From positions 14,871 through 78,870 of the forward strand of contig CAYUOR010000003.1 of the NCBI GenBank assembly GCA_964446535.1: a stretch of 64,000 nucleotides of DNA, in the 5' to 3' direction. This document shows positions 4,957-62,330 of this stretch, piece by piece. The notes below the pieces were generated by a model. That model had not been told where the DNA came from. It worked only from the letters and a program-made list of their open reading frames with translations, and searched no databases. The stretch comes from an uncultured Candidatus Saccharibacteria bacterium. GTDB taxonomy: Bacteria > Patescibacteriota > Minisyncoccia > Phycocordibacterales > Zambryskibacteraceae. The translations under genes were made by a program, and so were the position numbers. Each line of letters begins with the position of its first letter. The first letter of the stretch is position 1.

Positions 4957-5060
4957 ACCCTGACTTCTCCTTTGTTATGAAAAGAACTTAAAAGAGCCGA
5001 AAGCGATATGCTAACACGGGAAATAAAATTCGCAAGGCCTGCCCGCGCAGGCGGGGAAAA

Positions 5061-6266
5061 CTAGGCTTTATACTTAGTCAAAAATTCTTTCTTGAATTTG
5101 TCAAAGGTGTTTTCGATAATTGACTCTCTAATCTTTTTCACAAGGTTCACTATAAAGTAAAGATTGTGTATTGAGCCGAGTGTTCCGCCAAGAATTTCAT
5201 GCGCGCGATAGAGGTGGCAGAGATAGCCCCTGGAATAGTTTTTACAAGTATAACAGCCACAACTTTCTTCAACGGGCTTCTGGTCATCGCGGAATTCAGC
5301 GTTTCTTATATTCATTTTTCCATTTTTTGTATAGAGCGTTCCACCCCTGCCGTTTCTCGTCGGTGCGACACAATCAAATAAATCCACCCCATTTTCAATC
5401 CCCATAAACAGGTCTTCCGGCTCACCTATGCCTAAGAGATGCTTCGGTTTTTCTTTCGGTAGAATCTCGTTTACCCACCTGACCGCGGTTGCCATATCTT
5501 CTTTATTGAACGAGCCGCCGATGCCAAAGCCGTCGAAATCTAAGTTTCCAATAAATTCTGCCGATTCTTTACGCAATGATTCTTCCCGACCACCTTGGAC
5601 AATGCCGAAGAGGGCTTGCTCACCATTGTTGTGTGCCCTGTGATATTCAAGAGAGCGCTTAGCCCATCTGTGGGTTCTCGCCATAGCTTCTTTCTGATAT
5701 TCAAAAGATTCTTGAGGGGAAGTACATTCATCAAAGGCAAAAATTATGTCGGCGCCGAGGTTGTGTTGAATCTCCATAGACTTCTCGGGAGTAATGTGAT
5801 GAAGCGAGCCGTCGAGGTGCGATTTAAAAGTGACACCGTCTTCTGTAACCTCTGCTAGTCGGCCAAAAGAATTTTCATCGGCGTCGCCTGCCTGCGCAGA
5901 CAGGGAGCCCTTTTGATTTTTCTCTGACGCGACCTTAGATACGCTCTTCCCAAACGCGCGACCGAGAGAAAAAGCTTGAAAACCGCCCGAGTCGGTCATG
6001 ATGGGTCCCTGCCAATTCATAAACCTGTGTAACCCGCCGAAACTTTTTAGACGTTCGGCACCGGGTTCTAGATAAAGGTGATAAGTGTTTGCTAAAACTA
6101 CCTGGGCCCCCAAGTCTTTAACCTGCTCAGTGGTAAGCGCTTTAACAGACGCTTTTGTGCCAACAGCAACAAAAGCGGGGGTTTCAATTTTCCCATGCGG
6201 TGTTTCCAGCACCCCCGCTCTCATCAAACCAATTTCAGAAAGTATAGAAAACTTTATTGAACTCAT
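5061..6266 (-). CDS. tgt: Queuine tRNA-ribosyltransferase (tRNA-guanine transglycosylase)
   Basis: Motifs LANTYHLYLEPG, TDSGGFQAFSLG and Zn-site CGCYTCKNYSRGYLCHL. There is an internal insertion of about 40 aa relative to typical Tgt. Confidence 0.9.
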   Translation of the reverse strand: MSSIKFSILSEIGLMRAGVLETPHGKIETPAFVAVGTKASVKALTTEQVKDLGAQVVLANTYHLYLEPGAERLKSFGGLHRFMNWQGPIMTDSGGFQAFSLGRAFGKSVSKVASEKNQKGSLSAQAGDADENSFGRLAEVTEDGVTFKSHLDGSLHHITPEKSMEIQHNLGADIIFAFDECTSPQESFEYQKEAMARTHRWAKRSLEYHRAHNNGEQALFGIVQGGREESLRKESAEFIGNLDFDGFGIGGSFNKEDMATAVRWVNEILPKEKPKHLLGIGEPEDLFMGIENGVDLFDCVAPTRNGRGGTLYTKNGKMNIRNAEFRDDQKPVEESCGCYTCKNYSRGYLCHLYRAHEILGGTLGSIHNLYFIVNLVKKIRESIIENTFDKFKKEFLTKYKA

Positions 6267-7638: not shown

Positions 7639-7905
7639 ATGAAATCTATCGGCGATAGTCTAGAAAAACGTGATTTTAAAAAGATTTTTAAGCATCCACG
7701 ACTGAAAATGCTTGATGAATTTCATCGTCGCATCAACGCAGAGCGTTTGGCAGAAGGTATGAGAACACTCCCTATGCGGGCTATCGGTGTCAAAACCGCC
7801 CACCTTTCTCTTGAGGATATGGCATACCTTCTAAAAAGGTGTTCACAGAGTTCAAATTTCTCCAAATGTTTTTTCGGCAGTTTGAAAGTAAAAAATGACA
7901 AATAA
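7639..7905 (+). CDS. Hypothetical small ORF (88 aa), weak
   Basis: ORF only. A TATAAT at 7623-7628 lies just upstream. It overlaps the def-fmt start by 11 nt and may be spurious. Confidence 0.2.
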   Translation: MKSIGDSLEKRDFKKIFKHPRLKMLDEFHRRINAERLAEGMRTLPMRAIGVKTAHLSLEDMAYLLKRCSQSSNFSKCFFGSLKVKNDK

Positions 7906-9199
7906 AAATAAGGAAAGCCTGCCTGCGCAGGCAGGTAAAATTCTAGACAAAGACGCGGCTGTTTTAAGAAAAGTTGCCAAAGAAATCCCGCCAAAGGAAA
8001 TTGGTCTCAAGAAAACCAAAGATATTATTGAACGCATGAGAAGAGCTCTTTACGGTGAAGAAGACGGTGTCGCGATAGCGGCGCCGCAAATCGGTGAGAG
8101 TTTGCGTGTGTTTATGGTGCGTGGTGATGTACTTCTCTTCGCCAAAGGTAAAAAGGTCCAGTCTAAAGAAAAACCTGATGATCTCGTTTTTATAAATCCG
8201 GAAATTATACATACTTCAAGAAAGAAGAAGCGAGTTGAAGAGGGTTGCCTTTCTGTCCGATGGCTTTATGGCAAAGTTCTAAGAAGTGAAAAAATGACTA
8301 TCGGCGCCTATAACGAAAAGGGTGTCTGGATTGAGCGTGGTGCCTCGGGTCTGTTAGCACAAATCTTTCAGCACGAAATAGACCACCTAAACGGAATCCT
8401 CTTTACCGACAAGGCAGAGGACCTGCGAGACATACCTCCGCCGAAAGTTTTGAAATTTGCATACTTCGGTAGCTCCGAATTTTCGCGCTTTGTCCTGGAA
8501 GAACTTGAAGAGATGGGCTACTCGCCCACTCTAAATATCACCTCCAGCAAAGAGCCGTTGCCGATAGAAAAACTTAAAGAGCTTCAGGCAGATATTTTTA
8601 TCGTTGCTTCGTTCGGCAAAATTCTCCCGAAAGAGATTATCGAGATACCGAAATTCGGAACCCTAAACGTTCACCCGTCGCTTCTGCCGAAACTCCGCGG
8701 AGCCTCCCCCATACAAGGAACAATTCTTTCCGAGAACGAGCCTGGGGTAACGATAATCAAGATGGACGAACACACGGATCACGGCCCGATTATCACGCGA
8801 GTAAAAGTTGAGATTAGTCCCTGGCCGGACCATTACGCCACTGTGGAAGAAAAGCTCGGGCGAGCGGGCGGTAGAGTCCTGGGACTTGTTCTGCCGAAGT
8901 GGATCGGCGGAGAGATTGAAGCTGCGGCCCAGGAGGATGAGAATGCAACCTTTACAAAATTAATAAAAAAAGAAGATGGCCACTTGAATCTATCCGACGA
9001 CCCGAAAGTGAATCTCAGAAAAGTGCTTGCTTACAGCAGTTGGCCTGGCGCATATATTTACTATAAAAATAAGTTCGGTAAAGAAATACGAGTGAATATA
9101 AAAGACGCAGAGATTAAGGACGGAAAGTTTGTTCCCACGCGCGTCGTGCCAGCCGGTAAAAAAGAAATGAGTTGGCAGGACTTCCTCCGTGGTAACTAA
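7895..9199 (+). CDS. def-fmt: Fused peptide deformylase / methionyl-tRNA formyltransferase (Def-Fmt single polypeptide)
   Basis: The N-terminal part, about 175 aa, carries Def motifs: GVAIAAPQIG, EGCLSV and HEIDHLNG. The C-terminal part, about 250 aa, carries Fmt motifs: FGKILPKEIIEIPKFGTLNVHPSLLPKLRGASPIQ, MDEHTDHGPII and a C-terminal WPGAY domain. It is one continuous 434-aa ORF. Confidence 0.85.
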   Translation: MTNKNKESLPAQAGKILDKDAAVLRKVAKEIPPKEIGLKKTKDIIERMRRALYGEEDGVAIAAPQIGESLRVFMVRGDVLLFAKGKKVQSKEKPDDLVFINPEIIHTSRKKKRVEEGCLSVRWLYGKVLRSEKMTIGAYNEKGVWIERGASGLLAQIFQHEIDHLNGILFTDKAEDLRDIPPPKVLKFAYFGSSEFSRFVLEELEEMGYSPTLNITSSKEPLPIEKLKELQADIFIVASFGKILPKEIIEIPKFGTLNVHPSLLPKLRGASPIQGTILSENEPGVTIIKMDEHTDHGPIITRVKVEISPWPDHYATVEEKLGRAGGRVLGLVLPKWIGGEIEAAAQEDENATFTKLIKKEDGHLNLSDDPKVNLRKVLAYSSWPGAYIYYKNKFGKEIRVNIKDAEIKDGKFVPTRVVPAGKKEMSWQDFLRGN

Positions 9200-11859: not shown

Positions 11860-12102
11860 ATGGCTCACACTTACATCTTATTGAGTGAAGTTGCGAATAA
11901 AACCTATGTCGGCAGTACTACTGACCTGAAAAGGCGCGTTGCCGAACATAATTCAGGAAAATCTACCTTCACGAAAAGGTATGCACCCTGGAAATTGGTA
12001 TATAGTGAACAGTTCGATAATATAAGTGAAGCTCGTCGGCGAGAGAAGTACTTTAAGTCTTCCGCCGGCAGGGCAAAGATTAAAGACTTTATTCCGCGAT
12101 AG
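11860..12102 (+). CDS. GIY-YIG nuclease family protein (UPF0213/YhbQ-like, 80 aa)
   Basis: MAHTYILLSEVANKTYVGSTTDLKRRVAEHN...EARRREKYFK is a GIY-YIG motif with a catalytic Arg/Glu. The track ORF starts at 11725, but homology begins at Met 11860. Its stop codon lies 8 nt inside the tRNA-Asn. Confidence 0.8.
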   Translation: MAHTYILLSEVANKTYVGSTTDLKRRVAEHNSGKSTFTKRYAPWKLVYSEQFDNISEARRREKYFKSSAGRAKIKDFIPR

Positions 12103-12168
12103 CTCAGTTGGTAGAGCGCCTCGCTGTTAACGAGGATGTCCCAGGTTCGAGCCCTGGTCGCGGAGCCA
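12093..12168 (+). tRNA. tRNA-Asn (anticodon GTT), CCA encoded
   Basis: Cloverleaf: acceptor TCCGCGA/TCGCGGA, D stem GCTC/GAGC, anticodon stem CCTCG/CGAGG with loop CTGTTAA, T stem CCAGG/CCTGG with loop TTCGAGC, discriminator G, CCA. Confidence 0.92.
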
Positions 12169-23719: not shown

Positions 23720-25738
23720 TTAAATCTCTTCCCAAGAACCTATAGAAATATTGGACGGAGAAAGAAGCGGAGGTGGAGGGGGTTGAGGAGGAGTAGCGCT
23801 CGCTGAAGGGCCGGCGGCTGGACAAGAAAGTTGGGCTATTGAGTTAAATATATCGGAGAGATAGGAAGAACTTGGTGCGATAAAGAAATAATCTCCATCA
23901 GTATTTTCACTCGCATAACCAGCAGAATTATTGCCGAAGTTATCGTTTGAGCCAGACTGGTGTGCATTGCCGAAATGTGAGTGACTCGGTAGGCCAGAAG
24001 CCGAAACGGAACCAGAAGCAAGGGCAGACAGAAGCTCTTGGCCATAAAAACCAGATGGGTCTGAACCATAAAAAACCGTAAAAATTTCTACCCCACTAAG
24101 TTTGGCGGCGTCGGCAGCATCAAGTGCTGCTTCCGCCGCATTCGGCGGCTCGTCTGGATCGCCGTCAGAAACCAAAAGAAGAACCTTCCTCTTTCCAGAA
24201 AGATGTCTAGGACCGTTAAGCTCAGCCGCCCCAACACTTATGGCATCGGCAAGGTTAGAGCCAACATTACTTGCCGATCCGGTGGCTTCCTCTATGGCAT
24301 CATAAAGATCACCGTCATTGTCGTCTCCGGGATTATCCTCGCCATAAATACGGGAAAGCCAGCCTATGGGCGACCGGCTGTGATAAACACGAACCGACAC
24401 CCAATCCAGAGCATAATCCCGACCGGCACATGAGGGGGCGCCGGTACAGTTCATTGTCAATCTGACTCTAAAATTATTGTTGGAAAAATCGTTAGCTACC
24501 CAAGATCGCCCCCAGAGATCGGAGCTGCTGCCGACCGTATCCGTATGGTAGGAATGTGTTGATTCGTCATTAGAAATTTTTGAAACCCAATTGGCTCCGC
24601 CGTTCCAAGAAATTTCAACAGTGATACTGTTTTCTCCCTCTACTGCCGTGTCGTGATTTTCTTCATCCGCCGGTAGCCACCAATCAAGCCGCACCTCTAT
24701 GCCGGTTATGGTTGTGTTTACAGGAATGGTTATGCCGTAGTTGTAGTAAATGTGTCTGTCACCGGCGCCATTTCTGTTCTCGGCAAAACTTATGCCGTCG
24801 TTGAGGGCGTTGAGAGGATAAAGTTCCAGGCCATCACCATCACCACCAGTTGTTGCGTCTTCTGCTGTTGGGCTAAGGAAACCGGTGCTACTTAAAACTC
24901 CGGGTACAATTTCCGCCTCAATACCGCCAGGTAAATTATCTCCAAACCTACCGATGCCAACTTGTGGAAATGGGTCAGTTGTGGAGGCAAATAAATTAAG
25001 TATGCCCTTGGCTGCAGCTTCCTCGTCAGATCGCGCCGAAGAAGAAAAATTAGATGTTCTATCAAGCATCAAAACAAGATCAGCGCAGTCTGGCGGCTCG
25101 CCAACAGAAATGGGTGCAGAGCAAGAACCAGAACCTCCAGGACCGCTGACAGAGCCCTCATAAGTGGTGCTTCTATCGGGGAAAACAAGTTCCTGCCCGC
25201 TAGTGTTTGGTTGGGGAGAAATAACAGAACCATTTGCGCGATCAGTAATAAAAAATGAGTCAGCATTAGTGGAGGTTGCCCAAGAAAGCCAGGCCGAACC
25301 GCCATCGTCTATATTGTCTGGGCTAATTGAAAGAGCACAGGCGGCCGGTGGTGGCAGGGGTGGTAAAGACGGATCAATAACGGTTGCGTTAGTCACAACA
25401 CTTGAGAAAGAGCCGTTAACTTCTGCCCAGGTTCTTATTTCTCTATTAAAGTCTCCACTCGGAAGAGAAACACTTTCAATGTGGCAAGTGTTTGAACCGA
25501 GAGTAATGACGTCATTGGATGGATTGTAGTAGTAATCCTCTCGAAGGTTTAGAAGTGCTACATTGACACAAGCTTCAGCGAGAGAGAGGGCTTGGCGCTT
25601 GAACTCATTCTGGAGAGCATTTGAGCGTGCGTAAAAAGCCGATGCGCCGGCCGTTACGGTAATAGCAAGAATCACGGCCGAGATTGCAAGAACCGATATA
25701 AGGGCGACGAAGCCGTGATCTTGGTTTTTTAAATTCAT
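23720..25738 (-). CDS. Large pilus-associated protein with pseudopilin-like N-terminal helix and von Willebrand factor A domain
   Basis: N-terminus HGFVALISVLAISAVILAI. VWA-like block VLLLVSDGDPDEPP...GVEIFTVFYGSDPSG. Pro-rich C-terminus. 672 aa. Confidence 0.65.
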   Translation of the reverse strand: MNLKNQDHGFVALISVLAISAVILAITVTAGASAFYARSNALQNEFKRQALSLAEACVNVALLNLREDYYYNPSNDVITLGSNTCHIESVSLPSGDFNREIRTWAEVNGSFSSVVTNATVIDPSLPPLPPPAACALSISPDNIDDGGSAWLSWATSTNADSFFITDRANGSVISPQPNTSGQELVFPDRSTTYEGSVSGPGGSGSCSAPISVGEPPDCADLVLMLDRTSNFSSSARSDEEAAAKGILNLFASTTDPFPQVGIGRFGDNLPGGIEAEIVPGVLSSTGFLSPTAEDATTGGDGDGLELYPLNALNDGISFAENRNGAGDRHIYYNYGITIPVNTTITGIEVRLDWWLPADEENHDTAVEGENSITVEISWNGGANWVSKISNDESTHSYHTDTVGSSSDLWGRSWVANDFSNNNFRVRLTMNCTGAPSCAGRDYALDWVSVRVYHSRSPIGWLSRIYGEDNPGDDNDGDLYDAIEEATGSASNVGSNLADAISVGAAELNGPRHLSGKRKVLLLVSDGDPDEPPNAAEAALDAADAAKLSGVEIFTVFYGSDPSGFYGQELLSALASGSVSASGLPSHSHFGNAHQSGSNDNFGNNSAGYASENTDGDYFFIAPSSSYLSDIFNSIAQLSCPAAGPSASATPPQPPPPPLLSPSNISIGSWEEI

Positions 25739-26223
25739 CTGCGTAGATATTTAATAGTCGAGAAATCTTGAGATAGCGATATGCCGTCTGGAGTTCTGGC
25801 GTTTGCGGTAAAGCTTGCTTCGAGACTTTCCGGATTAATGCCGACGCCCGATTCAACAGAGTGCACAAAACTTAAGTTACTTATCCAGACGTTGGTGTTG
25901 TTGAGAATCTCTGGCGTAGTTGTGCCACGAGCAATGCGGAGATTATTATTATTTAGATCAATAATAATCTCTGTACCATCAAAAGTTATTACCGAAAGCG
26001 AGCTTGAAGCACTTACGGGCCAAATAACTTCACTTGTATTTGAAAATACCCAATCAATCTTGGCGGATAAAAATGTGCCTTCTTCTAGAATCATGGCCTT
26101 GGTTTGATTGCGGCTTGAAGTCTGGCTGACACTGTAGACGGAAGTGAGTATCCCCGCCATGATAACTGAAAAGAGGGCGAGATAAATAAGTGTTTCTATC
26201 AGTGTAAAGCCTTTCTTTTTCAT
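25735..26223 (-). CDS. Minor pilin (prepilin-type N-terminus)
   Basis: MKKKGFTLIETLIYLALFSVIMAG. Confidence 0.7.
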   Translation of the reverse strand: MKKKGFTLIETLIYLALFSVIMAGILTSVYSVSQTSSRNQTKAMILEEGTFLSAKIDWVFSNTSEVIWPVSASSSLSVITFDGTEIIIDLNNNNLRIARGTTTPEILNNTNVWISNLSFVHSVESGVGINPESLEASFTANARTPDGISLSQDFSTIKYLRR

Positions 26224-27749
26224 GAACTTGTTATCACGGTTATATAACCAGAACCAGCCGTATCAGACGAGCCAACATAAATAAAGTTACCCTCACAATC
26301 GATGCTTCTGCCTACACTACCTGATGGCATGGGAATTGAGGCGGAAGAAATTATGTTTGAAGGATTGGTGGTGTTAAGAATTTTTAAACTTTCGTTAGTC
26401 AAAATAAAAGATAAATAATCTCTGACCAAAAGATCGTTTATGCTATCGTCTGCAGCATATTCCCCTATTGGCGTATCATTAACAGCTGTTGGATTTGAAA
26501 CGTCTATGATATGAAATTCCGGGTTTGATGAAAACACGGTTTCGGTTCTTCCCAAATACAGAGTATCTCCGACAAGAGCCAGGCTCTTTCCATTTCCCGC
26601 GTTATCATTGGCGTGGAAACCGCCGACTCTTGACGGATTCCTGGGGTCAATAATATTTATTATCGTTAGCTGCTCCTGCGGGTTGTTAGAACTGTCAGTT
26701 GGGTGGGCGAGATAGGCGTGGCCGTTACGAACCGCCAAAGCATTTACCGGCTGGAGTGAACTTTGTCCTTGAGTTGGCCAGCCGCCCACCCAGAACGGTG
26801 AGAGGGGGGTGTGGACATCTATGATATGAAACTCTGGTCCGCTTCCAGTCTTTGAAAGCCCGAGATAAATATATCCATCCTTATAAAAAATATTTTTACC
26901 TATAGCCTGACCGCCCGAGCCAGTCACTCTGGCCCCAGATGAGGTTGCAAGCTTCAGACTGACTATAGCTGGATTCCAGTTGCTAGTGGGTGAGCTGACA
27001 TCCACCACCTGAAGCTGGGCACAACTTGGTCCCACCGAGCAGGAGTTAAAATTTGCATCGTGTGCGTTCGCGACATACGCGTAATCCCCGGCGACCTTGA
27101 CGGCGTTGAGGCCGTCTCTTGTACTACCGGCATTGTCTGTACCGCCCAAATATATAGGCTTCGTTGATTGATTTGAAATATCAAAAACAAAAAGAGTTTT
27201 GTCGATATTTACCGCAGTTTCACCGACCGTTACATAAAGCTTCCCCCTATAAGCATCGAGATCGGTAACTGGATATGTGCCAGAAAGACCGGCGGGCAGA
27301 AGATCAGAGGCGCGCAAAGTATATGTACGAGCTACGGGGCTAGACCAATTACCTTCTGGAGAAGAATTGCAGGTAGAGGCGCCAACGGAACTTGAAAAAT
27401 CTGTTACGATAGTTTTTAATTCAACACTTTGTCTCAGGCCGCGCTCGCTTTGCCAACTGATTTCTACCACTACCTCTTTTGTTAAAAAGTCTGGGCGAAG
27501 ATTTACAGAAATTCTCTCGGTGTAGAAGCCGTTGTGGGTCGTGGTGGAATTTACCAAATTAAAATCTTTCCGCGCCAGCGCCTGTTGTCTTTCTATAAGA
27601 GCTTGTGCTCGTTTAAGTGCTTCACTCGCGGACTCGCTACTGGCAAGCGACATCTGATTGCCAAAAGAAATAAGTATCACAGATGAGAGAACTATGACCA
27701 TTATGGTCATGGCGATAATCACTTCCAGGGTTGAAAATCCTTTATTCAT
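26220..27749 (-). CDS. Pilin-like protein with large beta-propeller-type C-terminal domain; true start at Met 27749 (MNKGFSTLEVII)
   Basis: Class III signal GFSTLEVIIAMTIMVIV. It is followed by about 450 aa rich in repeated G..YVAN/LVIVD-like segments. The start abuts the stop of the upstream gene. Confidence 0.6.
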   Translation of the reverse strand: MNKGFSTLEVIIAMTIMVIVLSSVILISFGNQMSLASSESASEALKRAQALIERQQALARKDFNLVNSTTTHNGFYTERISVNLRPDFLTKEVVVEISWQSERGLRQSVELKTIVTDFSSSVGASTCNSSPEGNWSSPVARTYTLRASDLLPAGLSGTYPVTDLDAYRGKLYVTVGETAVNIDKTLFVFDISNQSTKPIYLGGTDNAGSTRDGLNAVKVAGDYAYVANAHDANFNSCSVGPSCAQLQVVDVSSPTSNWNPAIVSLKLATSSGARVTGSGGQAIGKNIFYKDGYIYLGLSKTGSGPEFHIIDVHTPLSPFWVGGWPTQGQSSLQPVNALAVRNGHAYLAHPTDSSNNPQEQLTIINIIDPRNPSRVGGFHANDNAGNGKSLALVGDTLYLGRTETVFSSNPEFHIIDVSNPTAVNDTPIGEYAADDSINDLLVRDYLSFILTNESLKILNTTNPSNIISSASIPMPSGSVGRSIDCEGNFIYVGSSDTAGSGYITVITSS

Positions 27750-27750
27750 T

Positions 27751-28230
27751 TTATTTTGTCCAGAAAATCTGTCCTTCGGAGCCAATAGTTGTGGTTGAAA
27801 CGGTGCCAGAATCGGAAATAATAATATCCCCCGCTGTAAACACTTCGCCCGAGAGTGGCTGGAAAACGATTTCAGCCAGTCCTGTGACGAAAGCGCCACC
27901 AGTCTTTTCAACCACCTCGTTGTATTCGTCATCGGGATTATAAGAACTGCCCTGAAAAATTATGAATCGGTCACTCTCTATCTTTACGCCATGTGGTAGA
28001 CCGTCCGTGCAGAGTGGTCCGAAACAAGTATTGCTTATTGCTAAGGCACGAGCTCGGTGTAGGGTGCTTATAAGGAGGTCTCGATCTGAGCGAAAAATTT
28101 GTTTTTTGAAACTATCTACCCCCATAACCATAGAAAACCCGCCGATGAGAGCCACCAAGCCGAGCACTACGAGAATTTCCATTAGGGTCATTCCTCGGTC
28201 GAGTCTCTGTTTTCGGAGAACGTGCGACAT
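27751..28230 (-). CDS. Pseudopilin / minor pilin
   Basis: RGMTLMEILVVLGLVALIGG. Confidence 0.65.
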   Translation of the reverse strand: MSHVLRKQRLDRGMTLMEILVVLGLVALIGGFSMVMGVDSFKKQIFRSDRDLLISTLHRARALAISNTCFGPLCTDGLPHGVKIESDRFIIFQGSSYNPDDEYNEVVEKTGGAFVTGLAEIVFQPLSGEVFTAGDIIISDSGTVSTTTIGSEGQIFWTK

Positions 28231-28239: not shown

Positions 28240-29355
28240 TTATTTTTGAAGTCCTTGGGTAATGCTATAGATGGGGGTAATTATGGAAATGGCGACAAAG
28301 CCAACGAGTAACCCCATGATAACCATGAGCACCGGTTCAATCATGTTGGATAAATTTTTTGTTGAATCCTCCACCTCGCTCTCATACATATCCGAGAGAT
28401 AGTTCAGAGTCTCGGAAAGGTTGCCGCTTCGTTCGCCGACAGAAATAATTTGTGAGAGAACATCAGGAAAAAGTTTTCTATAATTTTTCATGTGAGAAGA
28501 AATTTTTTCTCCTCTGTTGGCAACTTCCGCAAGTTTTTCAAGTTCGGATCGGTAAATCAAATTATTAGTTGAGCGCGAGGTTATCGGCAGGGCTTCGGAA
28601 AGAGTCATTCCACCATTAAGAAGAAGGCCTAGAGTGCGGCTAATGTTGGCTAGATGATAATTTTGAATCATCTGGCCGATTAGCGGGGCGCGCATAGAAA
28701 GTCTGTCAAACCAGTAGTGGAATCTTTCGCTTCTTTTAAAAACGAATCTAAGCACTAGAACGAAAACAATGATTCCCAACAATAACCAAAGTCCGTAGGC
28801 GCCAAGAAAGTTGCTCGTGGCAATAAGAATCTTTGTGGTTACAGGTAATTCGACGTTAAGACTAAGGAAAATTGGCATTATCTTCGGAAAAATAAAGACA
28901 ATAAGGAGGCTTGTAATACCTATGGTGGCTAAGGTAATAAAAATCGGATATACCATTGCGCCAACCACCTTTCGCCTTAGAAGTTGCCGCTTCTTTAACT
29001 CTTCAGCCAGATAGGAAAGGTTCTCGCTGAGAGCTCCAGTCTGTTCGCCAACAGCAATAATACTTATGGCAAAATCACCAAAAGCGTTTTTGAAATTTTT
29101 TAGACTATCGGAGAGCGAACGACCGCTTGAAACATCGGCTATCGTCCTTTCAAGGAGTCTGTTATAACTTTTGGAAATTGTTTGCTCCCGAATCATGCTC
29201 AAAGCCTCAATAAGTGAAACTCCGGCATTAATAAGAAATGAAAGACGCTTTGCAAAAAAGGCTTGTTCACCTATAGAAAACTTGCCGAACCTGAAATTTG
29301 TCAAAGAACTTTTAAAAGATTTGCCGCCACTACTACTTACTTTTTTTGAAAACAT
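28240..29355 (-). CDS. pilC: Type II secretion system F-family platform protein (PilC/GspF-like)
   Basis: 371 aa with two GspF repeats and three TM segments. Confidence 0.88.
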   Translation of the reverse strand: MFSKKVSSSGGKSFKSSLTNFRFGKFSIGEQAFFAKRLSFLINAGVSLIEALSMIREQTISKSYNRLLERTIADVSSGRSLSDSLKNFKNAFGDFAISIIAVGEQTGALSENLSYLAEELKKRQLLRRKVVGAMVYPIFITLATIGITSLLIVFIFPKIMPIFLSLNVELPVTTKILIATSNFLGAYGLWLLLGIIVFVLVLRFVFKRSERFHYWFDRLSMRAPLIGQMIQNYHLANISRTLGLLLNGGMTLSEALPITSRSTNNLIYRSELEKLAEVANRGEKISSHMKNYRKLFPDVLSQIISVGERSGNLSETLNYLSDMYESEVEDSTKNLSNMIEPVLMVIMGLLVGFVAISIITPIYSITQGLQK

Positions 29356-29356
29356 C

Positions 29357-30574
29357 TTACTCGTGAATTACGCGCAGGACTTCTTCTAGGGTTGTCTCTC
29401 CCCTTTTGGTGCGATTTATACCGTCTTCAAGCATGGTGGTCATACCATTTTTAACAGCGATTTTTTTAAGTTCGGAGGCCGACGCCTTGCGAAGGATGGC
29501 TTCTCTGATTTCATCATCTGCTACCAGAACCTCGTTGATACAAATTCTACCTGAGTAACCTGAATCATTACATTTCTTGCAACCCTTACCATGAAAAATG
29601 GTCTCGCCCCCCTCGAGATCTGAGAGAAGGGTGTTATTTTTCAGACCCTCTTTCATGGCTGTGGTTAGAGCCACCGGCTCTTTGCAGTGTTCACATATTT
29701 TCCTTACCAGCCTTTGGCCAATTATGATATTCACGGTCGAGGCAACAAGATAGGTTTCAATACCCATATCTAGCAATCTCGGTAGCGTCGTGGCGGCATC
29801 GTTTGTGTGAAGGGTAGAGAGTAAGAGGTGTCCGGTGAGTGCCGTATTTACCGCAATGTTAGCTGTTTCAGAATCGCGGATTTCTCCAACCATAATGATA
29901 TTAGGGTCCTGGCGAAGAATGGAACGCAGACCGTTGGCAAAGGTGAGGCCGGTACGATGATTTACCTGAATTTGTTCTACGTCGGGAATAGCATACTCTA
30001 TCGGATCTTCTATGGTAATTATGGAAACTTCCGGTGAATTTAACATTTTTATCATTGTGTAAAGAGTTGTAGTTTTACCGGAACCGGTCGGACCAGTAGA
30101 GAGAATCATGCCATTCGGCTTTCTCAGGGCTGTAATTATTTTCTTTCTATCTCCCTCAGAGAAACCCAGGCTTTTAAGATCAAAGTTCTCCGATTTGTCG
30201 GCCAGGAGTCGTAGAACCGCGTTTTCACCGTGATACGTTGGTACAATAGAAACCCTGATATCGATGTGGCGCCCATCGGAAAGGTCTTGGCGTAAGCGCC
30301 CGTCTTGAGTCGCGTTATGTTCGTCTGTGCGAAGACGCGAAAGAACTTTAATACGAGAAATCACTTCTGGGTGAATCGTTTTGGGGAAATTATAAACATC
30401 CTGTAGTACGCCGTCTATGCGAAACCGGACTCGAACTTTATCAACCAGTGGGTCAATGTGAATGTCCGAGGCATGAACTTCATGAGCCTTTTCTATAAGG
30501 GAATTTACCAGACCGATAATCGAGAGATTGGTGCCATTGGCAAGTTCCTTCTCTACCGTGTTGGGGTTCGACAT
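29357..30574 (-). CDS. GspE/PilB-family secretion ATPase (short form, 405 aa)
   Basis: Walker A GPTGSGKTT, Asp/His boxes, and a C-terminal tetracysteine CEHCK...CKKC. Confidence 0.88.
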   Translation of the reverse strand: MSNPNTVEKELANGTNLSIIGLVNSLIEKAHEVHASDIHIDPLVDKVRVRFRIDGVLQDVYNFPKTIHPEVISRIKVLSRLRTDEHNATQDGRLRQDLSDGRHIDIRVSIVPTYHGENAVLRLLADKSENFDLKSLGFSEGDRKKIITALRKPNGMILSTGPTGSGKTTTLYTMIKMLNSPEVSIITIEDPIEYAIPDVEQIQVNHRTGLTFANGLRSILRQDPNIIMVGEIRDSETANIAVNTALTGHLLLSTLHTNDAATTLPRLLDMGIETYLVASTVNIIIGQRLVRKICEHCKEPVALTTAMKEGLKNNTLLSDLEGGETIFHGKGCKKCNDSGYSGRICINEVLVADDEIREAILRKASASELKKIAVKNGMTTMLEDGINRTKRGETTLEEVLRVIHE

Positions 30575-33823: not shown

Positions 33824-34591
33824 ATGAAAAAACTCGAGACTTCTTCATATAAAGGGGTTAGGGATTTCTACCCGGAGGATATGAAGGTGCAGAATTACAT
33901 TTTCGATACCTGGCGTAAGGTGGCAGAAAAATTCGGCTACGTTGAATACGGCGCCTCGATCCTTGAGCCAACAGAGCTCTACACGGAAAAATCGGGCGCA
34001 GAGATTATAAACGAGCAAACCTTTACCTTTACTGACAGGGGTGAGCGTTCTGTTACCTTGCGACCGGAGATGACACCGACACTTGCACGCATGGTCGCCG
34101 CTAGGCGTAGGAACTTGAAATTTCCTCTTCGGTGGTACGCCATACCAAATCTTTTCCGCTACGAACGCCCGCAGCGAGGTAGAAAGCGAGAACATTGGCA
34201 ACTGAATTGTGATCTCTTGGGCATAGAAGGTGTTGAGGGCGATAAGGAAATAATTTCTCTCGCATACAGTGTTATGAAAGAATTTGGTGCCAAAGATTCT
34301 GATTTTGAGATTAGAATAAACAATGCCGATATAGAGAAATTTCGAGATATCGGGGCGAATTTTGTCTACGACGCTTCCCTGGCAAGAGGGCAAACATATT
34401 ATACTGGGGTAGTTTTTGAAATATTCGATACCGATAAATCAAACCCTAGGGCTCTGGCGGGTGGTGGGCGCTACGACAACCTTCTGGAGCTTTTTGACGT
34501 GGCGCCAGTGCCGGCGATTGGCTTCGGTATGGGTGATATCACTTTGCGCGACTTTCTTGAAACTCATGGACTGCCCATATGCGCAAGGTAG
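33824..34591 (+). CDS. Histidyl-tRNA synthetase-like class II core lacking an anticodon-binding domain (255 aa)
   Basis: HisRS motifs are present: RPEMTPTLARM, FRYERPQRGRKREHWQLNCDLLG and GGGRYDNL. The ORF stops right after the motif-3 region, where the next gene starts. Confidence 0.75.
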   Translation: MKKLETSSYKGVRDFYPEDMKVQNYIFDTWRKVAEKFGYVEYGASILEPTELYTEKSGAEIINEQTFTFTDRGERSVTLRPEMTPTLARMVAARRRNLKFPLRWYAIPNLFRYERPQRGRKREHWQLNCDLLGIEGVEGDKEIISLAYSVMKEFGAKDSDFEIRINNADIEKFRDIGANFVYDASLARGQTYYTGVVFEIFDTDKSNPRALAGGGRYDNLLELFDVAPVPAIGFGMGDITLRDFLETHGLPICAR

Positions 34592-35154
34592 TTTTTGATA
34601 TAGAAACTAAAAATTTTTTTTCTGACGTTGGGGGTAACGACCCAGCGCTTTTGGATTTGGCTCTGGTTGCCATTCACGACTCGGAAACTAATTCTTACCA
34701 GTCGTTTCTCGAGGAAGAGCTAGTCAGGCTCTGGCCAATAATTGAGCGGGCCGATGTTCTCATAGGCTTTAACTCGGACCATTTTGATATACCTCTTCTC
34801 AATAAATATTATTCGGGGGATTTAACAAAAATAAAAAGCCTGGACTTACTCAAAGAGATAAAAAATACTTACGGCAGAAGAATGCGTTTGGATCAGCTCG
34901 CCGAGGGCACTCTTGGTAAAAATAAGTCGGGGGGTGGTGCTGATGCTATAAACTGGTGGCGAGCTGGGGATATAGAGCGAGTTCGCTCATACTGTATTGA
35001 CGATGTTAGGCTTACCAAGGAGCTTTACGAATATGCGTTAAAAAACGGAAAACTTATTTTTAAAGAAGGTGGAGTATTGAACGAAATAAAGCTTGATGTT
35101 TCAAGTTGGGAGAGGCCAAATGGGCACAAACTTACCTTTTCGCTACCGTTTTAA
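34579..35154 (+). CDS. DEDDh-family 3'-5' exonuclease (DnaQ/RNase T-like)
   Basis: Exo motifs FDIETKN, SDHFDIPLL and YCIDDV. Confidence 0.7.
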   Translation: MRKVVFDIETKNFFSDVGGNDPALLDLALVAIHDSETNSYQSFLEEELVRLWPIIERADVLIGFNSDHFDIPLLNKYYSGDLTKIKSLDLLKEIKNTYGRRMRLDQLAEGTLGKNKSGGGADAINWWRAGDIERVRSYCIDDVRLTKELYEYALKNGKLIFKEGGVLNEIKLDVSSWERPNGHKLTFSLPF

Positions 35155-48684: not shown

Positions 48685-49563
48685 CTAAAGAATCTTTTCA
48701 GCCTCAATAAATTCATCCAAATCGCCCGAGAGCACCTTGTCGATGTCACGAATTTCAACATCGGTCCGATGATCCTTAATCATTTTATAGGGGTGAAAAA
48801 CGTATGAACGAATCTGGTTCCCCCATTCTATCTGGGTGGTCTTAGAAATATACATACCTCTTTCCTTCGCCCTTCGTTCGTCTTCCAACTTTTTATACAG
48901 CTTCGCCTCAAGAAGTCGCAGAGCTTTTTCCCTGTTCTGAGCTTGAGAGCGCTCTGATTCAACGTGGGCAGAAAGATTGGTCGGAATGTGAACAAGGCGC
49001 ACAGCTGTTTCGCGCTTGTTTACGTTCTGTCCGCCGGGACCGCTCGAGCGAGAATACTCTGTTTTGATTTCCTCGGGAGGAATATCTACTTCCTCCTGTT
49101 TATCAAACTTAGGAATAACCTCGACCATGGAGAACGAAGTGTGCCTAAGTTTCTTGGCATTGAATGGAGAGATGCGCACAAGGCGGTGCACCCCAGACTC
49201 ATTTTTAAGCGTGCCATAAGCGCTTTTACCCCTAATTTCTAGCGTGATATTGCGATAGCCCCCATGGTCGTTTTCATTTTTGTGAATGATTGAGTAGCTG
49301 AAAGATTTTTTGTCAAAAAACTTTTGATACATTTCAAGAAGAATACGGGAAAAGTCCTCGGCATCATCCCCGCCGGCGCCAGAAAAAATCGTCATCACGG
49401 CATCCCCCTTATCAAATTTACCTAGGCCCTCGAGTTCATTTTTAAGAGATTCGTGTTCGCGCAGAGTTGCTTGGGCTTTTACTTTATCTGACCAGAAATC
49501 AGCGGCTGACATTTGCTGTTCTATCTCTTCTATTTTCTTTTTTATTTTCTCTTGATCGGTCAT
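48685..49563 (-). CDS. prfB: Peptide chain release factor 2 (short N-terminus, no programmed frameshift evident)
   Basis: SPF tripeptide RISPFNAKK, and GGQ motif SGPGGQNVNK. The likely start is the ATG at 49563 (MTDQEK). The track ORF started at an upstream GTG that overlaps a tRNA. Confidence 0.88.
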   Translation of the reverse strand: MTDQEKIKKKIEEIEQQMSAADFWSDKVKAQATLREHESLKNELEGLGKFDKGDAVMTIFSGAGGDDAEDFSRILLEMYQKFFDKKSFSYSIIHKNENDHGGYRNITLEIRGKSAYGTLKNESGVHRLVRISPFNAKKLRHTSFSMVEVIPKFDKQEEVDIPPEEIKTEYSRSSGPGGQNVNKRETAVRLVHIPTNLSAHVESERSQAQNREKALRLLEAKLYKKLEDERRAKERGMYISKTTQIEWGNQIRSYVFHPYKMIKDHRTDVEIRDIDKVLSGDLDEFIEAEKIL

Positions 49564-49569
49564 AAACGG

Positions 49570-49642
49570 AGCCACCTCCGAGGATCGAACTCGGGACCCC
49601 GGCTTTACGAAAGCCGTGCTCTACCAACTGAGCTAAGGTGGC
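49570..49642 (-). tRNA. tRNA-Thr (anticodon CGT)
   Basis: Acceptor GCCACCT/AGGTGGC, D GCTC/GAGC, anticodon stem CGGCT/AGCCG with loop TTCGTAA, T stem CCGAG/CTCGG with loop TTCGATC. CCA is not encoded. Confidence 0.9.
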
Positions 49643-51309: not shown

Positions 51310-51383
51310 TTGGAATTTGTGTCGGCGGGAGGAATCGAACCTCCGACCTTGGGCTTATGAGTCCCACGCTCTAACCGACTGAG
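51310..51383 (-). tRNA. tRNA-Met (anticodon CAT; elongator or lysidine-Ile type, paired 1-72)
   Basis: Acceptor GTCGGCG/CGCCGAC, anticodon loop CTCATAA, T stem GGAGG/CCTCC with loop TTCGATT. Confidence 0.82.
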
Positions 51384-51507
51384 CTACGCCGACTTGAACA
51401 AGTGAGGAACAGAGAAGAAGCTTGCTTATTCTCTGGTTCCGAACGCCGTTCAAGCAAATTGCGGAGCAATTTACTTAAGCGACGATTTTAAACTATATTA
51501 CGAAATC

Positions 51508-51544: not shown

Positions 51545-51618
51545 AGCGGGTTGGAGGAGTAGTACCTCGACAGGCTCATAACCTGTAGACATCCGTGCAA
51601 ATCGGGTACCCGCAACCA
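51545..51618 (+). tRNA. Initiator-like tRNA-fMet (anticodon CAT) with unpaired 1:72 (A/A) and encoded CCA
   Basis: Acceptor AGCGGGT/ACCCGCA with a 1:72 mismatch. The 3' end GCAACCA matches the E. coli initiator. Anticodon arm ACAGG-CTCATAA-CCTGT, D GAGG/CCTC, T arm ATCCG-TGCAAAT-CGGGT. Confidence 0.7.
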
Positions 51619-60043: not shown

Positions 60044-61252
60044 CTAAACCCCGGCAGAATTCGCAATATCGTATATGGGGATAAGTACGGAGGCGAGAAG
60101 CACACCTACACCAACGCCTAGAAGCACTATCATGACGGGCTCAATCAGGCTCACTAGAGTGTCAACAGCGTTTATAACCTCCCTCTGATAGAAGTGCGCC
60201 ATAGTGCCGAGAATTGAACCCATTTCTCCTGATTCCTCCCCTACCCGTATCATCTGAACAAGCATGCCGGGAATCTCTTCGTACTGGGAAAGAGACTGCG
60301 AAAAAGAGCTGCCACCGCGCACGGCTATGACGCTTTCCTCTAGGATTTTCCTATAAACTTCGTTGCCGACGACGGTTGAAGTGACTTCTATGGCGTTTGC
60401 CATGGGTATACCAGAGAGAATCATGGTGCTCATGTTGTCTGCTATAAGGGAGAGGTAGAGCTTTTTATATAGGTCTCCCACATAAGGCACTGTAAGTTTG
60501 AAGCGCGCCATGGCGGACTTGCCGTCGGGCGTCTTTATATAACGCAAAACGAGGAACCCGCCTATAACCAGGGCGGCCAGTAGCAGGAAGCCGTAATTTA
60601 GGAAAAAGTTTGAGACAGCAAACACTATTTGAGTATAGAGCGGTATGGCCTGCCCCGACTCCACGATGATAAGACTTATCTTAGGAATAATAGCCGTAAA
60701 CATCAGGATCATGACCGCGATAAAAACCGTGATGACGAAAGCGGGATAGATCAGAGCATTTCTGGCTTTAGAAATAACTTCGTAATTTCGATCCAAATAG
60801 TCGGCAAGATGGTTAAAGGTGTCGTTAAGTTTACCGGTCTCCTCTCCGGATCGAACCATGTTGACATAAAAGTCGGAGAAAATTTTCGGGTGCTTAGAAA
60901 GAGCTTTGGAAATGGGGCTTCCCGCCTGAATGTCGTCTGCAATCTGGGTCAAACTTTTTCTTAAAACGAGATTCTCCATCTCGCTTGAAAGCAGGGTAAA
61001 AATTTTCAGAGCCGAAACTTGGGCTTCAAAGAGGGTTGCCATCTGGCGAGAAAGGATGACGACATCTCTGTGCGAGACGCCAGAGCCGAAGTGGAGAGTC
61101 GCAAGCCAAGATTCTTTCTCTGCCGACTCGATATCGACAATCATTAAATTTCTCTTCTGGAGAGAACTAACGGCCACGTCGAGAGAGACCGCTTCTATTT
61201 CGCCGCTGGTTTCTTTTCCGGAATTTTCGAGGGCTTTATATTTAAAAAGCAT
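60044..61252 (-). CDS. pilC: Type IV pilus platform protein PilC (GspF family)
   Basis: 402 aa with duplicated GspF domains and 3 TM segments. Confidence 0.9.
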   Translation of the reverse strand: MLFKYKALENSGKETSGEIEAVSLDVAVSSLQKRNLMIVDIESAEKESWLATLHFGSGVSHRDVVILSRQMATLFEAQVSALKIFTLLSSEMENLVLRKSLTQIADDIQAGSPISKALSKHPKIFSDFYVNMVRSGEETGKLNDTFNHLADYLDRNYEVISKARNALIYPAFVITVFIAVMILMFTAIIPKISLIIVESGQAIPLYTQIVFAVSNFFLNYGFLLLAALVIGGFLVLRYIKTPDGKSAMARFKLTVPYVGDLYKKLYLSLIADNMSTMILSGIPMANAIEVTSTVVGNEVYRKILEESVIAVRGGSSFSQSLSQYEEIPGMLVQMIRVGEESGEMGSILGTMAHFYQREVINAVDTLVSLIEPVMIVLLGVGVGVLLASVLIPIYDIANSAGV

Positions 61253-61256
61253 TGTC

Positions 61257-62324
61257 TTAAATCATGCGTTCCAAGGCCTTTCTGTTGGTGGCAAACTGCA
61301 TGGCGTTATCAACCGTTACTTCGCCAGAACGCACAAGCTCGGCGAGAGAACGGTTGAGATTTATCATCCCCTCTTCGGAACTGGTTTCTATAACCGAGTT
61401 GATTTCGTGCGTCCTTTTTTCTCGGATAAGGTTTGCCACGGCGTTGTTGTTGATCAGGAGCTCAAAAGCGGGAATAAGCCCGCCGGAAATTCTCGGCAAT
61501 AGCCGCTGAGAAAAGATACCGAGAAGCGAACTTGCAAGCTGCAGTCTAATCTGCGTTTGCTGGTCCGACGGGAACGAGTCGATGATGCGGTCAACGGTCT
61601 GTCCGGCGGCATTGGTGTGGAGAGTTGAGAGGACGAGGTGCCCGGTCTCGGCCGCGGTGACTGCGGTTGATATGGTTTCGAGGTCACGCATTTCTCCGAT
61701 CATAAGTATGTCGGCATCCTGGCGAAAAACACCTTGAAGCGCAGTGCGGAAGTCTGGCGTATCTATCTTTACCTCGCGCTGATTGATGATGGACTTTTTC
61801 GGCTCAAAAATGTATTCGATCGGATCTTCAATAGTGACAATGTGCTCCAGGCGCTCCTGGTTTATCGTTTCTATCATCGTGGCAAGCGTTGTAGACTTGC
61901 CGACGCCGACCGGTCCAACGACGAGGAAAAAGCCCTGCTGACGCTTGGCGAAGTTCTCAAGTATCGGTGGTAGGCGCAATTCTTCAAAAGTTTTAATGCG
62001 TGAAGGGATAAGACGCATCGCGATACTGATTTTCCCGAGAGAGAGATAGGCGTTGCAGCGAAAGCGTTTTGAATCGGCGTGGGTGTAGGCGAAGTTTGTT
62101 TCCTTATTTTTTTCAAATTCTTCTTTGTTTCGTTCTGAAAATAGAAGGTGAATAAACCCTTCGAGATCATCGCGCTTCAGGGGTGCCATCTTCGCCAGAG
62201 GTAGAAGGAAGTTTGATACACGGATAGTCGGGAGCTTGCCCTCGGAGAGATGCAGATCCGAAGCGTCTTCTTTAACAACAATGTCTATAAGTTCGCTTAA
62301 AAGTTTATCGTGGGTGCCTGTCAT
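61257..62324 (-). CDS. pilT: Type IV pilus retraction ATPase PilT
   Basis: Walker A GPVGVGKST, and AVANLIREKRTHEI (an AIRNLIRE-like PilT signature), 355 aa. Confidence 0.9.
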   Translation of the reverse strand: MTGTHDKLLSELIDIVVKEDASDLHLSEGKLPTIRVSNFLLPLAKMAPLKRDDLEGFIHLLFSERNKEEFEKNKETNFAYTHADSKRFRCNAYLSLGKISIAMRLIPSRIKTFEELRLPPILENFAKRQQGFFLVVGPVGVGKSTTLATMIETINQERLEHIVTIEDPIEYIFEPKKSIINQREVKIDTPDFRTALQGVFRQDADILMIGEMRDLETISTAVTAAETGHLVLSTLHTNAAGQTVDRIIDSFPSDQQTQIRLQLASSLLGIFSQRLLPRISGGLIPAFELLINNNAVANLIREKRTHEINSVIETSSEEGMINLNRSLAELVRSGEVTVDNAMQFATNRKALERMI

Positions 62325-62330
62325 TTTGTT

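Follow-up and report, generated by a model that had tools for sequence, protein, structure and literature searches.

A Patescibacteria gene that fuses peptide deformylase to a loop-less methionyl-tRNA formyltransferase

Peptide deformylase (Def) and methionyl-tRNA formyltransferase (Fmt) are encoded in E. coli by separate genes of a def-fmt operon, whereas in the window (the whole 64-kb stretch of DNA analyzed here) both are carried by one ORF. The locus raises the question of whether this ORF is a genuine fusion, how it came about, and whether a Def joined to a visibly shortened Fmt could still provide two enzyme activities. Judged from the sequence comparisons described below, the gene probably encodes a bifunctional Def-Fmt polypeptide that was born from overlapping def and fmt genes.

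The ORF reported in the earlier note, with Def and Fmt in one polypeptide, agreed exactly with the ORF list (Table 1), and three Pfam domains were recovered from its product: Pep_deformylase (PF01327; residues 15-177, E 1.7e-38, 132.1 bits against a cut-off of 22.8), Formyl_trans_N (PF00551; residues 223-329, E 3.1e-26, 92.7 bits), and Formyl_trans_C (PF02911; residues 357-410, E 1.1e-6, 29.2 bits), the last two also exceeding their curated cut-offs. In NCBIfam, the deformylase model TIGR00079 was passed (119.3 bits, cut-off 103.95). The fmt equivalog model TIGR00460 was not reached (150.7 bits, cut-off 201.5) and was aligned only over profile positions 71-240 of 315, a shortfall caused by deletions in the Fmt half. 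Foldseek matched the Def half to 4je6, 1zxz, and 6caz (E about 1e-13 to 1e-15; PDF1A and Legionella PDF) and the Fmt half to 4iqf, 1fmt, and 2fmt (E 1e-20 to 1e-22). The AF2 model of the fusion had a pTM of 0.66, with uncertainty in how the domains sit relative to each other. No second def or fmt gene was found in the 64-kb window. A neighboring ORF of 88 aa, for which Pfam gave no match, ends 11 nt inside def-fmt and is probably co-transcribed with it.

Table 1. Features of the def-fmt locus and the initiator-like tRNA, with positions in the window.
Feature	Position	Strand	Details and basis
def-fmt fusion gene	7895..9199	+	434 aa plus stop codon, ATG start; ORF list and sequence
Peptide deformylase domain, type-1-like, residues 15-178	7937..8428	+	PF01327, TIGR00079, alignment to E. 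coli Def, Foldseek
Def motif I GVAIAAPQ, residues 58-65	8066..8089	+	G58 and Q65 invariant; third position Ala, not Gly
Def motif II EGCLS, residues 116-120, with metal ligand Cys118	8240..8254	+	Invariant across 30 diverged fused clusters
Def motif III QHEIDHLNG, residues 159-167, with metal ligands His160 and His164 and catalytic Glu161	8369..8395	+	H160, E161, D163, and H164 invariant
Fusion junction DIPPPK/VLKF, residues 179-188	8429..8458	+	Def tail runs directly into Fmt strand beta-1; comparison with unfused relatives
Fmt N-terminal catalytic domain, residues 185-340, minus one beta-alpha unit	8447..8914	+	PF00551, alignment to E. coli Fmt, AF2
Fmt loop-1 remnant TSSKEPLP, residues 216-223	8540..8563	+	Takes the place of about 40 residues in E. 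coli Fmt (about T34-N73); alignments
Fmt catalytic Asn258 and His260 (NVHPSLLP) and Asp295	8666..8779	+	Correspond to E. coli Asn108, His110, and Asp146; invariant in 30 clusters
Shortened Fmt C-terminal tRNA-binding domain, residues 341-434	8915..9196	+	PF02911, alignment, AF2
Conserved 88-aa ORF	7639..7905	+	Also present at this place in L002 and L003, with 68-73% identity
Initiator-like tRNA(CAU), presumed Fmt substrate	51545..51618	+	ARAGORN

The Def motifs were examined against motif I in its classical (G-phi-G-phi-A-A-x-Q) and updated (phi-G-phi-A-A-x-Q) forms, motif II as EGCLS, and motif III as HExxH-phi-xG; the updated form comes from a study according to which exact conservation of the Def motifs is not needed for activity (PMC12690207). 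Motifs II and III, given in the earlier note as EGCLS and HEIDHLNG, were exact, but the GxGxAAxQ that it had listed for motif I is in fact GxAxAAxQ, with Ala at a position where the classical and updated motifs both have Gly. This Ala is kept throughout the window protein's own family, and the canonical GVGLAAPQ occurs in more distant fused clusters. Compared with E. coli Def (1BS4 and others), the window Def has the same fold and the same Cys/His/His/Glu/Gln set; it differs in a Lys-rich insertion at residues 76-96 and in the absence of the long C-terminal helix. In E. coli Def, this helix was reportedly found by Bingel-Erlenmeyer et al. in 2008 to bind the ribosome.

In the Fmt half, a script placed NVHPSLLP at residues 258-265, RGASPIQ at 268-274, and the catalytic Asp within DHGP at 295-298. 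The motifs claimed for the N-terminal domain were thus all present, but the domain is not intact, since PF00551 was covered only over profile positions 71-177 of 181; the coverage of PF02911 was 2-50 of 100. The fold, the catalytic Asn/His/Asp, and the def-then-fmt gene order are common to the window protein and E. coli Fmt (1FMT, 2FMT). The shortening of the Fmt part, also mentioned in the earlier note, was mapped by alignment. With 250 aa compared to the canonical 315, this half has undergone a net loss of about 30 residues in the N-terminal domain (about 40-69 in E. coli numbering), comprising the Arg42 loop, a2, and b3, and the remaining S217-x-K/R219-D/E-P-L-P is kept across the family. 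Consistent secondary structure was seen in the AF2 model, where b1 (188-192), a1 (195-206), and b2 (213-215) are followed directly by a3 (224-230) and b4 (234-238). Relative to E. coli Fmt, the C-terminal domain is shorter by about 19 residues in its interior and has no counterpart of the 11-residue tail; the AF2 model placed beta strands at 387-419. The 16-residue Arg42 insertion loop was missing in alignments with E. coli Fmt and also with loop-bearing Fmts from Patescibacteria. In E. coli, this loop docks with Arg42 on the acceptor stem of the initiator tRNA and is central to its recognition, and a review reports that Fmt specificity varies between lineages (PMC13234167).

A search of related genomes for the fusion revealed the same architecture in 120 of 120 homologues among the matches listed (61-100% identical), which came from many independent assemblies in NCBI, ENA, JGI, and Logan; when representatives were clustered at 50% identity, 39 of the best 150 were fused. 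The catalytic residues of both enzymes (N258, H260, and D295 of Fmt; C118, H160, H164, and E161 of Def) were invariant in a set of 30 fused clusters whose identity to the window protein ranges from 32 to 66%. Constraint was gauged by codon-position counts at the junction and by identity per domain, as the DNA relatives are 64-67% identical in protein and their synonymous sites would be saturated. The mean pairwise identities of the two halves were 67% and 68%, which corresponds to equal constraint.

The junction was in one frame in three genomes (the window, L002, and L003), with 16 of 27 differences in L002 and 13 of 20 in L003 at third codon positions. The junction prolines P181 and P182 hardly vary; the length of the linker ranges from 10 to 29 residues. 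By contrast, def and fmt were separate and overlapping in 69 of the 72 classifiable species-representative loci of related Patescibacteria. In such unfused relatives, def ends in '...DIPPxx' and a stop, the same tail as in the fusion, and the overlap of fmt with this stop amounts to 4 nt in L011 and L025 and, in another frame, to about 30 nt in L012 and L032. The fusion is therefore a read-through from def into an fmt that overlapped it, without an added linker, and this origin is shown by the sequence comparison. Ancestrally, fmt came after def, and its start overlapped the stop of def; a minor alteration where the two genes overlapped then brought them into one frame, so that the 'DIPP..' tail leads, with almost no linker between, into Fmt strand beta-1.

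Fusions of this kind are already known, and the loop-less Fmt half is the unusual part. In Exiguobacterium (Bacillales), def and fmt are fused in a single uninterrupted CDS, as in the window, and this fusion complemented an E. coli Δdef-fmt strain; a second PDF is present in all Exiguobacterium genomes (PMC12690207), whereas none was seen within the 64 kb analyzed here. Nothing similar to the minimal, loop-less Fmt half of the window protein has been reported for Exiguobacterium. The fusion in Patescibacteria is likely independent of the one in Exiguobacterium because the two belong to different phyla (Patescibacteria and Bacillota) and fusions are scattered in their distribution. Long-type fusions in other Patescibacteria (for example PIP21713.1/UniRef100_A0A2G9YSK9 from Nealsonbacteria; L006) share the domain order, the 'DIPP'-type junction, and the catalytic residues with the window protein, but they keep the canonical loop-1 motif PDKPAGRGKKLTPSPVK, which the window protein lacks, and the distance from Def HExDH to Fmt NxH is 118-140 residues in them compared to 98 in the window. 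In a rough NJ tree without support values, most of these long-type fusions fell away from the window's clade. The closest relatives of the window's Fmt half are def-adjacent fmt genes. Among stand-alone Fmts of Patescibacteria, L011 (263 aa), L012 (246 aa), and P0122 (259 aa, 63% identical to the window's Fmt half) have the same loop-1/a2/b3 deletion, a short C-terminal domain, and a def gene directly upstream, with the difference that the two genes are not fused but overlap in different frames. Since the loop is also absent from these unfused proteins, its loss does not depend on the fusion. In the open-access papers searched, no report of a Def-Fmt fusion in Patescibacteria/CPR, or of a loop-less Fmt in general, was found.

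The presumed substrate, an initiator-like tRNA(CAU), is encoded in the same window. It has an A1xA72 mismatch, G2:C71, C3:G70, G4:C69, A73, and A11:U24, and an atypical elbow, with a D-loop that lacks GG and with G55 in the T-loop. This tRNA was kept on 70 metagenome contigs with compensatory changes in its stems. The elongator tRNA(CAU) of the window lies at 51319-51393. Among 59 related loci, none had a tRNA(CAU) closer than 6 kb to def/fmt, and no def/fmt was present in the 70 metagenome loci carrying the initiator-like tRNA.

From the conserved catalytic residues and from orthology, both enzyme activities can be inferred, and the Def-Fmt protein is probably bifunctional. The C-terminal half would transfer the formyl group from 10-formyl-tetrahydrofolate to Met-tRNAfMet by means of Asn258, His260, and Asp295, and the N-terminal half would act as a metallo-deformylase (Cys118, His160, His164, Glu161, and Gln65) that deformylates nascent chains. 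The coupling of formylation and deformylation in one enzyme, as proposed in the earlier note, would hold physically and in expression only, and would not extend to substrate channeling: the two reactions are parted by initiation and the first rounds of elongation, so that no channeling is expected. The gain probably lies instead in obligatory one-to-one co-expression and co-inheritance: in a genome that is small and streamlined, formylation would always be accompanied by deformylation. As the Fmt half is without most of the insertion loop, a2, b3, and part of the C-terminal domain, other contacts with the initiator tRNA would be required. Candidates are what is left of loop 1 (S-x-K-[DE]-P-L-P), the KLIKKED linker between the domains, which is rich in Lys, and the C-terminal domain in its trimmed form.

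Several other explanations were weighed against a bifunctional fusion protein. A single-base indel in this assembly could have merged two neighboring genes; as def and fmt are separate and overlapping in nearly all related loci, a one-base error there would mimic a fusion. Fused homologues without exception among those listed, taken from independent assemblies, near-invariant junction prolines, and the in-frame junctions of L002 and L003, whose divergence is mainly of the synonymous type, nevertheless refute such an artefact at the level of the family, and we attach practically no weight to it. Hardly more credible is a C-terminal half that belongs to another folate-dependent formyltransferase, be it ArnA-like, a sugar N-formyltransferase, or PurN. 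ArnA, the sugar formyltransferases, and the FDH hydrolase share the fold and were also matched by Foldseek and NCBIfam, but the score of TIGR00460 compares with 90 bits for ArnA and 48 for PurN, PDB entries of Fmt were matched at E 4.5e-31 compared to 3e-18 for ArnA, and the nearest unfused relatives are def-adjacent Fmts with the canonical loop motif (P0127, L025). The wide margin of these scores, the def-adjacent relatives, and a Def as fusion partner ruled out this identity; the assignment to Fmt was upheld by Pfam, NCBIfam, sequence comparison with solved structures, and fold.

It is also very improbable that one half is dead, with a vestigial Fmt that serves Def only as a structural part or in binding tRNA or the ribosome, or with an inactive Def. 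The truncated Fmt, which falls under its equivalog cut-off, and the non-canonical Def motif I would fit such a loss. It is contradicted by catalytic residues and ligands that are invariant in both enzymes across widely diverged clusters, by the equal conservation of both halves, and by the lack of any other fmt or def within the window. Somewhat less remote, although still unlikely, is a real fusion with an active Def in which the tRNA specificity of the loop-less Fmt is changed or loosened; this Fmt would rely mainly on the methionyl moiety and an open 1x72 end, a mode proposed for metazoan mitochondrial MTFMT, or would use the Def domain as an extra tRNA-binding surface. The loss of Arg42 and most of the insertion loop, the trimmed C-terminal domain, the purine-purine mismatch and atypical elbow of the tRNA, and the lineage dependence of Fmt specificity (PMC13234167) are consistent with this reading. 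On the other side, the tRNA keeps the classical G2:C71, C3:G70, G4:C69, and A73, which suggests that recognition of the acceptor stem persists, and assistance by Def is countered by stand-alone loop-less Fmts (L011, L012, P0122, P0134, P0155, P0189), for which a Def domain is therefore not required. More tentatively than the bifunctional fusion itself, we consider it possible, though less likely than not, that a minimal Fmt without the Arg42 loop evolved repeatedly in Patescibacteria, that it uses a different mode of recognition which co-evolved with the unusual initiator tRNA, and that the Def domain may aid docking to the tRNA or ribosome in the fused clade. The tRNA traits concerned here are the purine-purine end, G55 in the T-loop, and the D-loop without GG.

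None of these findings overturns current understanding. In public annotation, the window family is named only 'peptide deformylase', long-type fusions only 'methionyl-tRNA formyltransferase', and the UniRef label of a Nealsonbacteria homologue is 'Multifunctional fusion protein'. Because these names are partial and the fmt equivalog model misses the short form, metabolic reconstructions may wrongly report fmt or def as absent. A natural loop-less Fmt of 250 aa, a form that many lineages conserve, offers a test of the share of the Arg42 loop in initiator-tRNA discrimination and a compact scaffold for engineering. The overlap of def and fmt makes their fusion a one-step event, and the scattered occurrence of fused and unfused forms shows the ease with which such fusions arise in streamlined genomes.

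The earlier note had described a single 434-aa ORF carrying both peptide deformylase (Def) and methionyl-tRNA formyltransferase (Fmt). This was confirmed by the position of the ORF and by a domain search in which three Pfam profiles, covering both enzymes, matched the one protein. Against NCBIfam, the protein scored 119.3 bits with TIGR00079 (peptide deformylase), above the cut-off; its top-scoring formyltransferase model was TIGR00460 (fmt), with 150.7 bits over profile positions 71-240 of 315, below the cut-off of 201.5. The motifs EGCLS, HEIDHLNG, NVHPSLLP, and RGASPIQ were found as noted, except that Def motif I reads GVAIAAPQ. The GC content was 0.461 for the gene and 0.460 for the window.

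Features of the def-fmt gene, its protein, and the surrounding window
Feature	Position	Strand	Remarks
def-fmt ORF	7895..9199	+	434 aa, ATG start
Pep_deformylase	residues 15-177		Pfam E 1.7e-38, above gathering score
Formyl_trans_N	residues 223-329		Pfam E 3.1e-26, above gathering score
Formyl_trans_C	residues 357-410		Pfam E 1.1e-6, above gathering score
Def motif I			GVAIAAPQ, Ala where second Gly expected
Def motif II	residues 116-120		EGCLS
Def motif III	residues 159-167		QHEIDHLNG
Fmt motif	residues 258-265		NVHPSLLP
Fmt motif	residues 268-274		RGASPIQ
88-aa ORF	7639-7905	+	no Pfam match; stop overlaps def-fmt start codon by 11 nt
Palindrome	7918-7935		perfect, 18 nt, GC-rich; codons 9-14 of def-fmt
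Palindrome near-copies	5038-5055, 5887-5904		one intergenic, one inside tgt
tRNA-Asn(GUU)	12093-12168	+	
Large ORFs	23720-25738, 26220-27932		no family assignment
Type IV pilus or type II secretion clusters	28240-30574, 60044-63726	-	T2SSE ATPases, T2SSF platform proteins
Histidyl-tRNA synthetase, first ORF	33824-34591	+	255 aa; tRNA-synt_His profile 1-148 of 308 only
Histidyl-tRNA synthetase, second ORF	34579-35154	+	191 aa
Peptide chain release factor ORF	48685-49575	-	296 aa; PCRF match from profile position 86 on
tRNA-Thr	49568-49642		
Initiator-like tRNA(CAU)	51545-51618	+	initiator hallmarks

Alignment of the Def half with E. coli Def showed 37% identity, with every catalytic residue present and a variable Lys-rich insertion at 76-96. 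Unlike E. coli Def, the window Def has no long C-terminal helix; the same short tail was found in unfused relatives, indicating that it is older than the fusion. Throughout 30 fused clusters sharing 32-66% identity with the window protein, Def residues G58, Q65, E116, G117, C118, S120, H160, E161, D163, and H164 and Fmt residues N258, H260, L264, P265, G269, P272, D295, and G297 were invariant. The most plausible reading is a bifunctional Def-Fmt protein, with both activities predicted.

A search of 5.8 billion proteins (E <= 1e-10) returned 3,840 matches, and all 120 of the matches listed (61-100% identical, 387-463 aa) carried Def and Fmt domains in one protein. These originated from NCBI, ENA, JGI, and Logan assemblies, the named sources being Zambryskibacteria, Parcubacteria, Minisyncoccia, or Patescibacteria MAGs. 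At the DNA level, two independent Zambryskibacteria genomes (loci L002 and L003) shared the junction frame of the window, and over the 24 codons leading from HExDH up to the junction, 16/27 and 13/20 differences, respectively, fell at third positions. Fused homologues in independent assemblies and this shared frame rule out a sequencing or assembly artefact, including the indel considered in the earlier note. Both halves were conserved to an equal degree in a 42-member alignment (mean pairwise identity: Def 67%, Fmt N-domain 68%, Fmt C-domain 68%).

When 80 species-representative loci were examined for the fusion, 72 could be classified as fused or unfused; one ORF spanned both enzymes only in L002, L003, and L006, and def and fmt were adjacent but separate in the other 69. 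In fully read unfused Patescibacteria relatives, def stopped shortly beyond the tail also present in the window, with the ends '...FIDKAKGLKEIPPKV' and '...DLREEPPAENS'. In two loci, L011 (def end 6540, fmt start 6537) and L025 (def end 6564, fmt start 6561), the def stop and the fmt start share 4 nt; in L012 and L032 the overlap is out of frame and spans about 30 nt. The window junction, DIPPPK followed by VLKFAYFGSS, therefore corresponds to the Def C-terminus with Fmt strand β1 following straight on. A minimal alteration of the overlap would suffice to produce the fusion, and def-fmt is best read as a read-through of two overlapping genes. The junction prolines were near-invariant across the family; linker length ranged between 10 and 29 residues, which speaks against an obligatory, rigid interface of the two domains. 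As to the coupling of formylation and deformylation proposed earlier, the fusion would impose obligatory co-expression of Def and Fmt without coupling them catalytically.

When 1.84 billion representatives at 50% identity were scanned exhaustively with HMMER, 721 proteins reached E <= 1e-30; the best 150 of these comprised 39 fused proteins, 7 stand-alone Defs, and otherwise fragments or stand-alone Fmts of about 245-315 aa. Where fused clusters had named members, these were Patescibacteria, for example Nealsonbacteria, and UniRef names one member 'Multifunctional fusion protein'. In a rough, star-like neighbor-joining tree of the shared Fmt region, without support values, the window clade adjoined the stand-alone Fmt P0122 amid unfused Fmts and apart from most other fusions, suggesting that fusion or fission happened independently several times. 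The window's family is already plentiful in public databases, and the fused proteins are annotated inconsistently, with only one of the two functions named: the short-type family of the window (P0001-P0120) is called only 'peptide deformylase', and long-type fusions (P0131, P0139/P0270, and P0213) only 'methionyl-tRNA formyltransferase' or 'hypothetical protein'.

The Def-Fmt fusion as a kind is already known. In the four Exiguobacterium reference genomes, def and fmt are fused into one gene, and an E. coli Δdef-fmt mutant regains growth with the E. alkaliphilum fusion (PMC12690207). Patescibacteria are not mentioned in that work, and no paper on their fusion was found in the literature searched. 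The Exiguobacterium genomes code for a second PDF as well (PMC12690207), whereas no second def or fmt was seen in the 64-kb window, and no folate genes were seen there.

The window has the gene content of an ordinary Patescibacteria chromosome (uvrB, tgt, mreB, hpf, vanY-like, rpoB/C, rpoD, dnaG, ligA, gatA, bipA, and type IV pilus genes), and the order tgt(-), mreB(-), small ORF(+), def-fmt(+), hpf(-), vanY(-) is common to the window, L002, and L003. The small 88-aa ORF has counterparts (68-73% identical) at the same position in these two closest fused genomes (L002 5709-5999, L003 5736-6035) and is absent from the other loci retrieved, in which, as in unfused relatives, priA lies before def. 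This ORF has the look of a genuine small gene co-transcribed with def-fmt. The palindrome CCTGCCTGCGCAGGCAGG encodes LPAQAG within an N-terminal extension missing from homologues; counting its two near-copies, there were three matches versus zero expected. The sequence possibly represents a short palindromic repeat that tolerates in-frame insertion. Similar odd Gly/Ala/Arg-rich inserts were seen in homologues P0114, P0054, and P0058. The tRNA-Asn(GUU) gene is downstream of def-fmt and co-oriented with it; the same arrangement with fmt or def-fmt, mostly at a distance of about 0.1-3.8 kb, was found in L003, L004, L010, L011, L014, and about 18 other loci, making this tRNA gene a conserved syntenic marker across many otherwise diverged Patescibacteria loci. 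Histidyl-tRNA synthetase is apparently split into overlapping ORFs in different frames, so that either the gene is truly split or there is a frameshift, whether real or an error. The tRNA-Thr gene lies directly upstream of the release factor ORF, where the usual N-terminal domain would not fit. The two pilus or secretion clusters are separate.

The shortening of the Fmt part noticed earlier (250 aa versus 315 in E. coli) was mapped by alignment to E. coli Fmt and loop-bearing relatives. Between 'TSSKEP' and 'LPIEKLKEL', a net total of about 30 residues is gone, equivalent to about residues 40-69 of E. coli Fmt (mature numbering). With them go helix α2, strand β3, and the greater part of the 16-residue insertion loop, Arg42 among it; the C-domain also lacks another ~19 internal residues and its tail. 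The AlphaFold2 model was confident (mean pLDDT 89.6), with a pTM of 0.66 that leaves the mutual domain orientation uncertain, and its closest solved structures were the Fmt entries 4iqf, 1fmt, and 2fmt (E 1e-20 to 1e-22). In the model, β1, α1, and a short β2 lead directly into the α3 and β4 equivalents, so that one β-α unit is missing at the sheet edge. Sorting the fused proteins by residue count between Def HExDH and Fmt NxH separated a long class (118-140 residues), retaining the motif PDKPAGRGKKLTPSPVK, from a short class (80-105 residues; window, 98). Fmts without the loop are also encoded by separate genes adjoining def, in L011 (263 aa) and L012 (246 aa), and occur as stand-alone proteins (representatives P0122, P0134, P0155, P0189, P0228, and P0254); judged from these sequences, loss of the loop is distinct from the fusion. 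Because deletion boundaries differ among the short forms, which are scattered over the rough tree, the loop was probably lost several times. No description of an Fmt lacking the insertion loop was found in the open-access literature searched.

In E. coli, the C1·A72 mismatch of the acceptor stem is where this loop docks, and recognition of the initiator tRNA depends on G2-C71, C3-G70, G4-C69, A73, and Arg42 (PMC13234167). One of the two tRNA(CAU) genes in the window is initiator-like: its 1×72 end is unpaired (A·A), and G2:C71, C3:G70, G4:C69, A73, and A11:U24 are present. The anticodon stem has only two of the three G:C pairs, adjoining the anticodon loop, with A:U at 29:41; the elbow is atypical (D-loop AGUAGUA without GG, T-loop UGCAAAU with G55), and the tRNA scores below the Rfam gathering threshold. 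A metagenome scan with its anticodon and T-arm recovered 70 contigs with 30 distinct sequences and compensatory changes in all four stems, indicating a real, conserved gene; full-length copies carried A1×A72 (59/67), C1×A72 (7/67), or U1·G72 (1/67). This putative initiator retains, at the sequence level, the classical acceptor determinants for formylation. None of the loci examined held both the initiator-like tRNA and def/fmt, so the tRNA type could not be linked to the Fmt type. The minimal Fmt without the Arg42 loop, which recurs in Patescibacteria whether fused or not, is the more interesting feature of this protein, and it raises a testable question about the mode of initiator-tRNA recognition.
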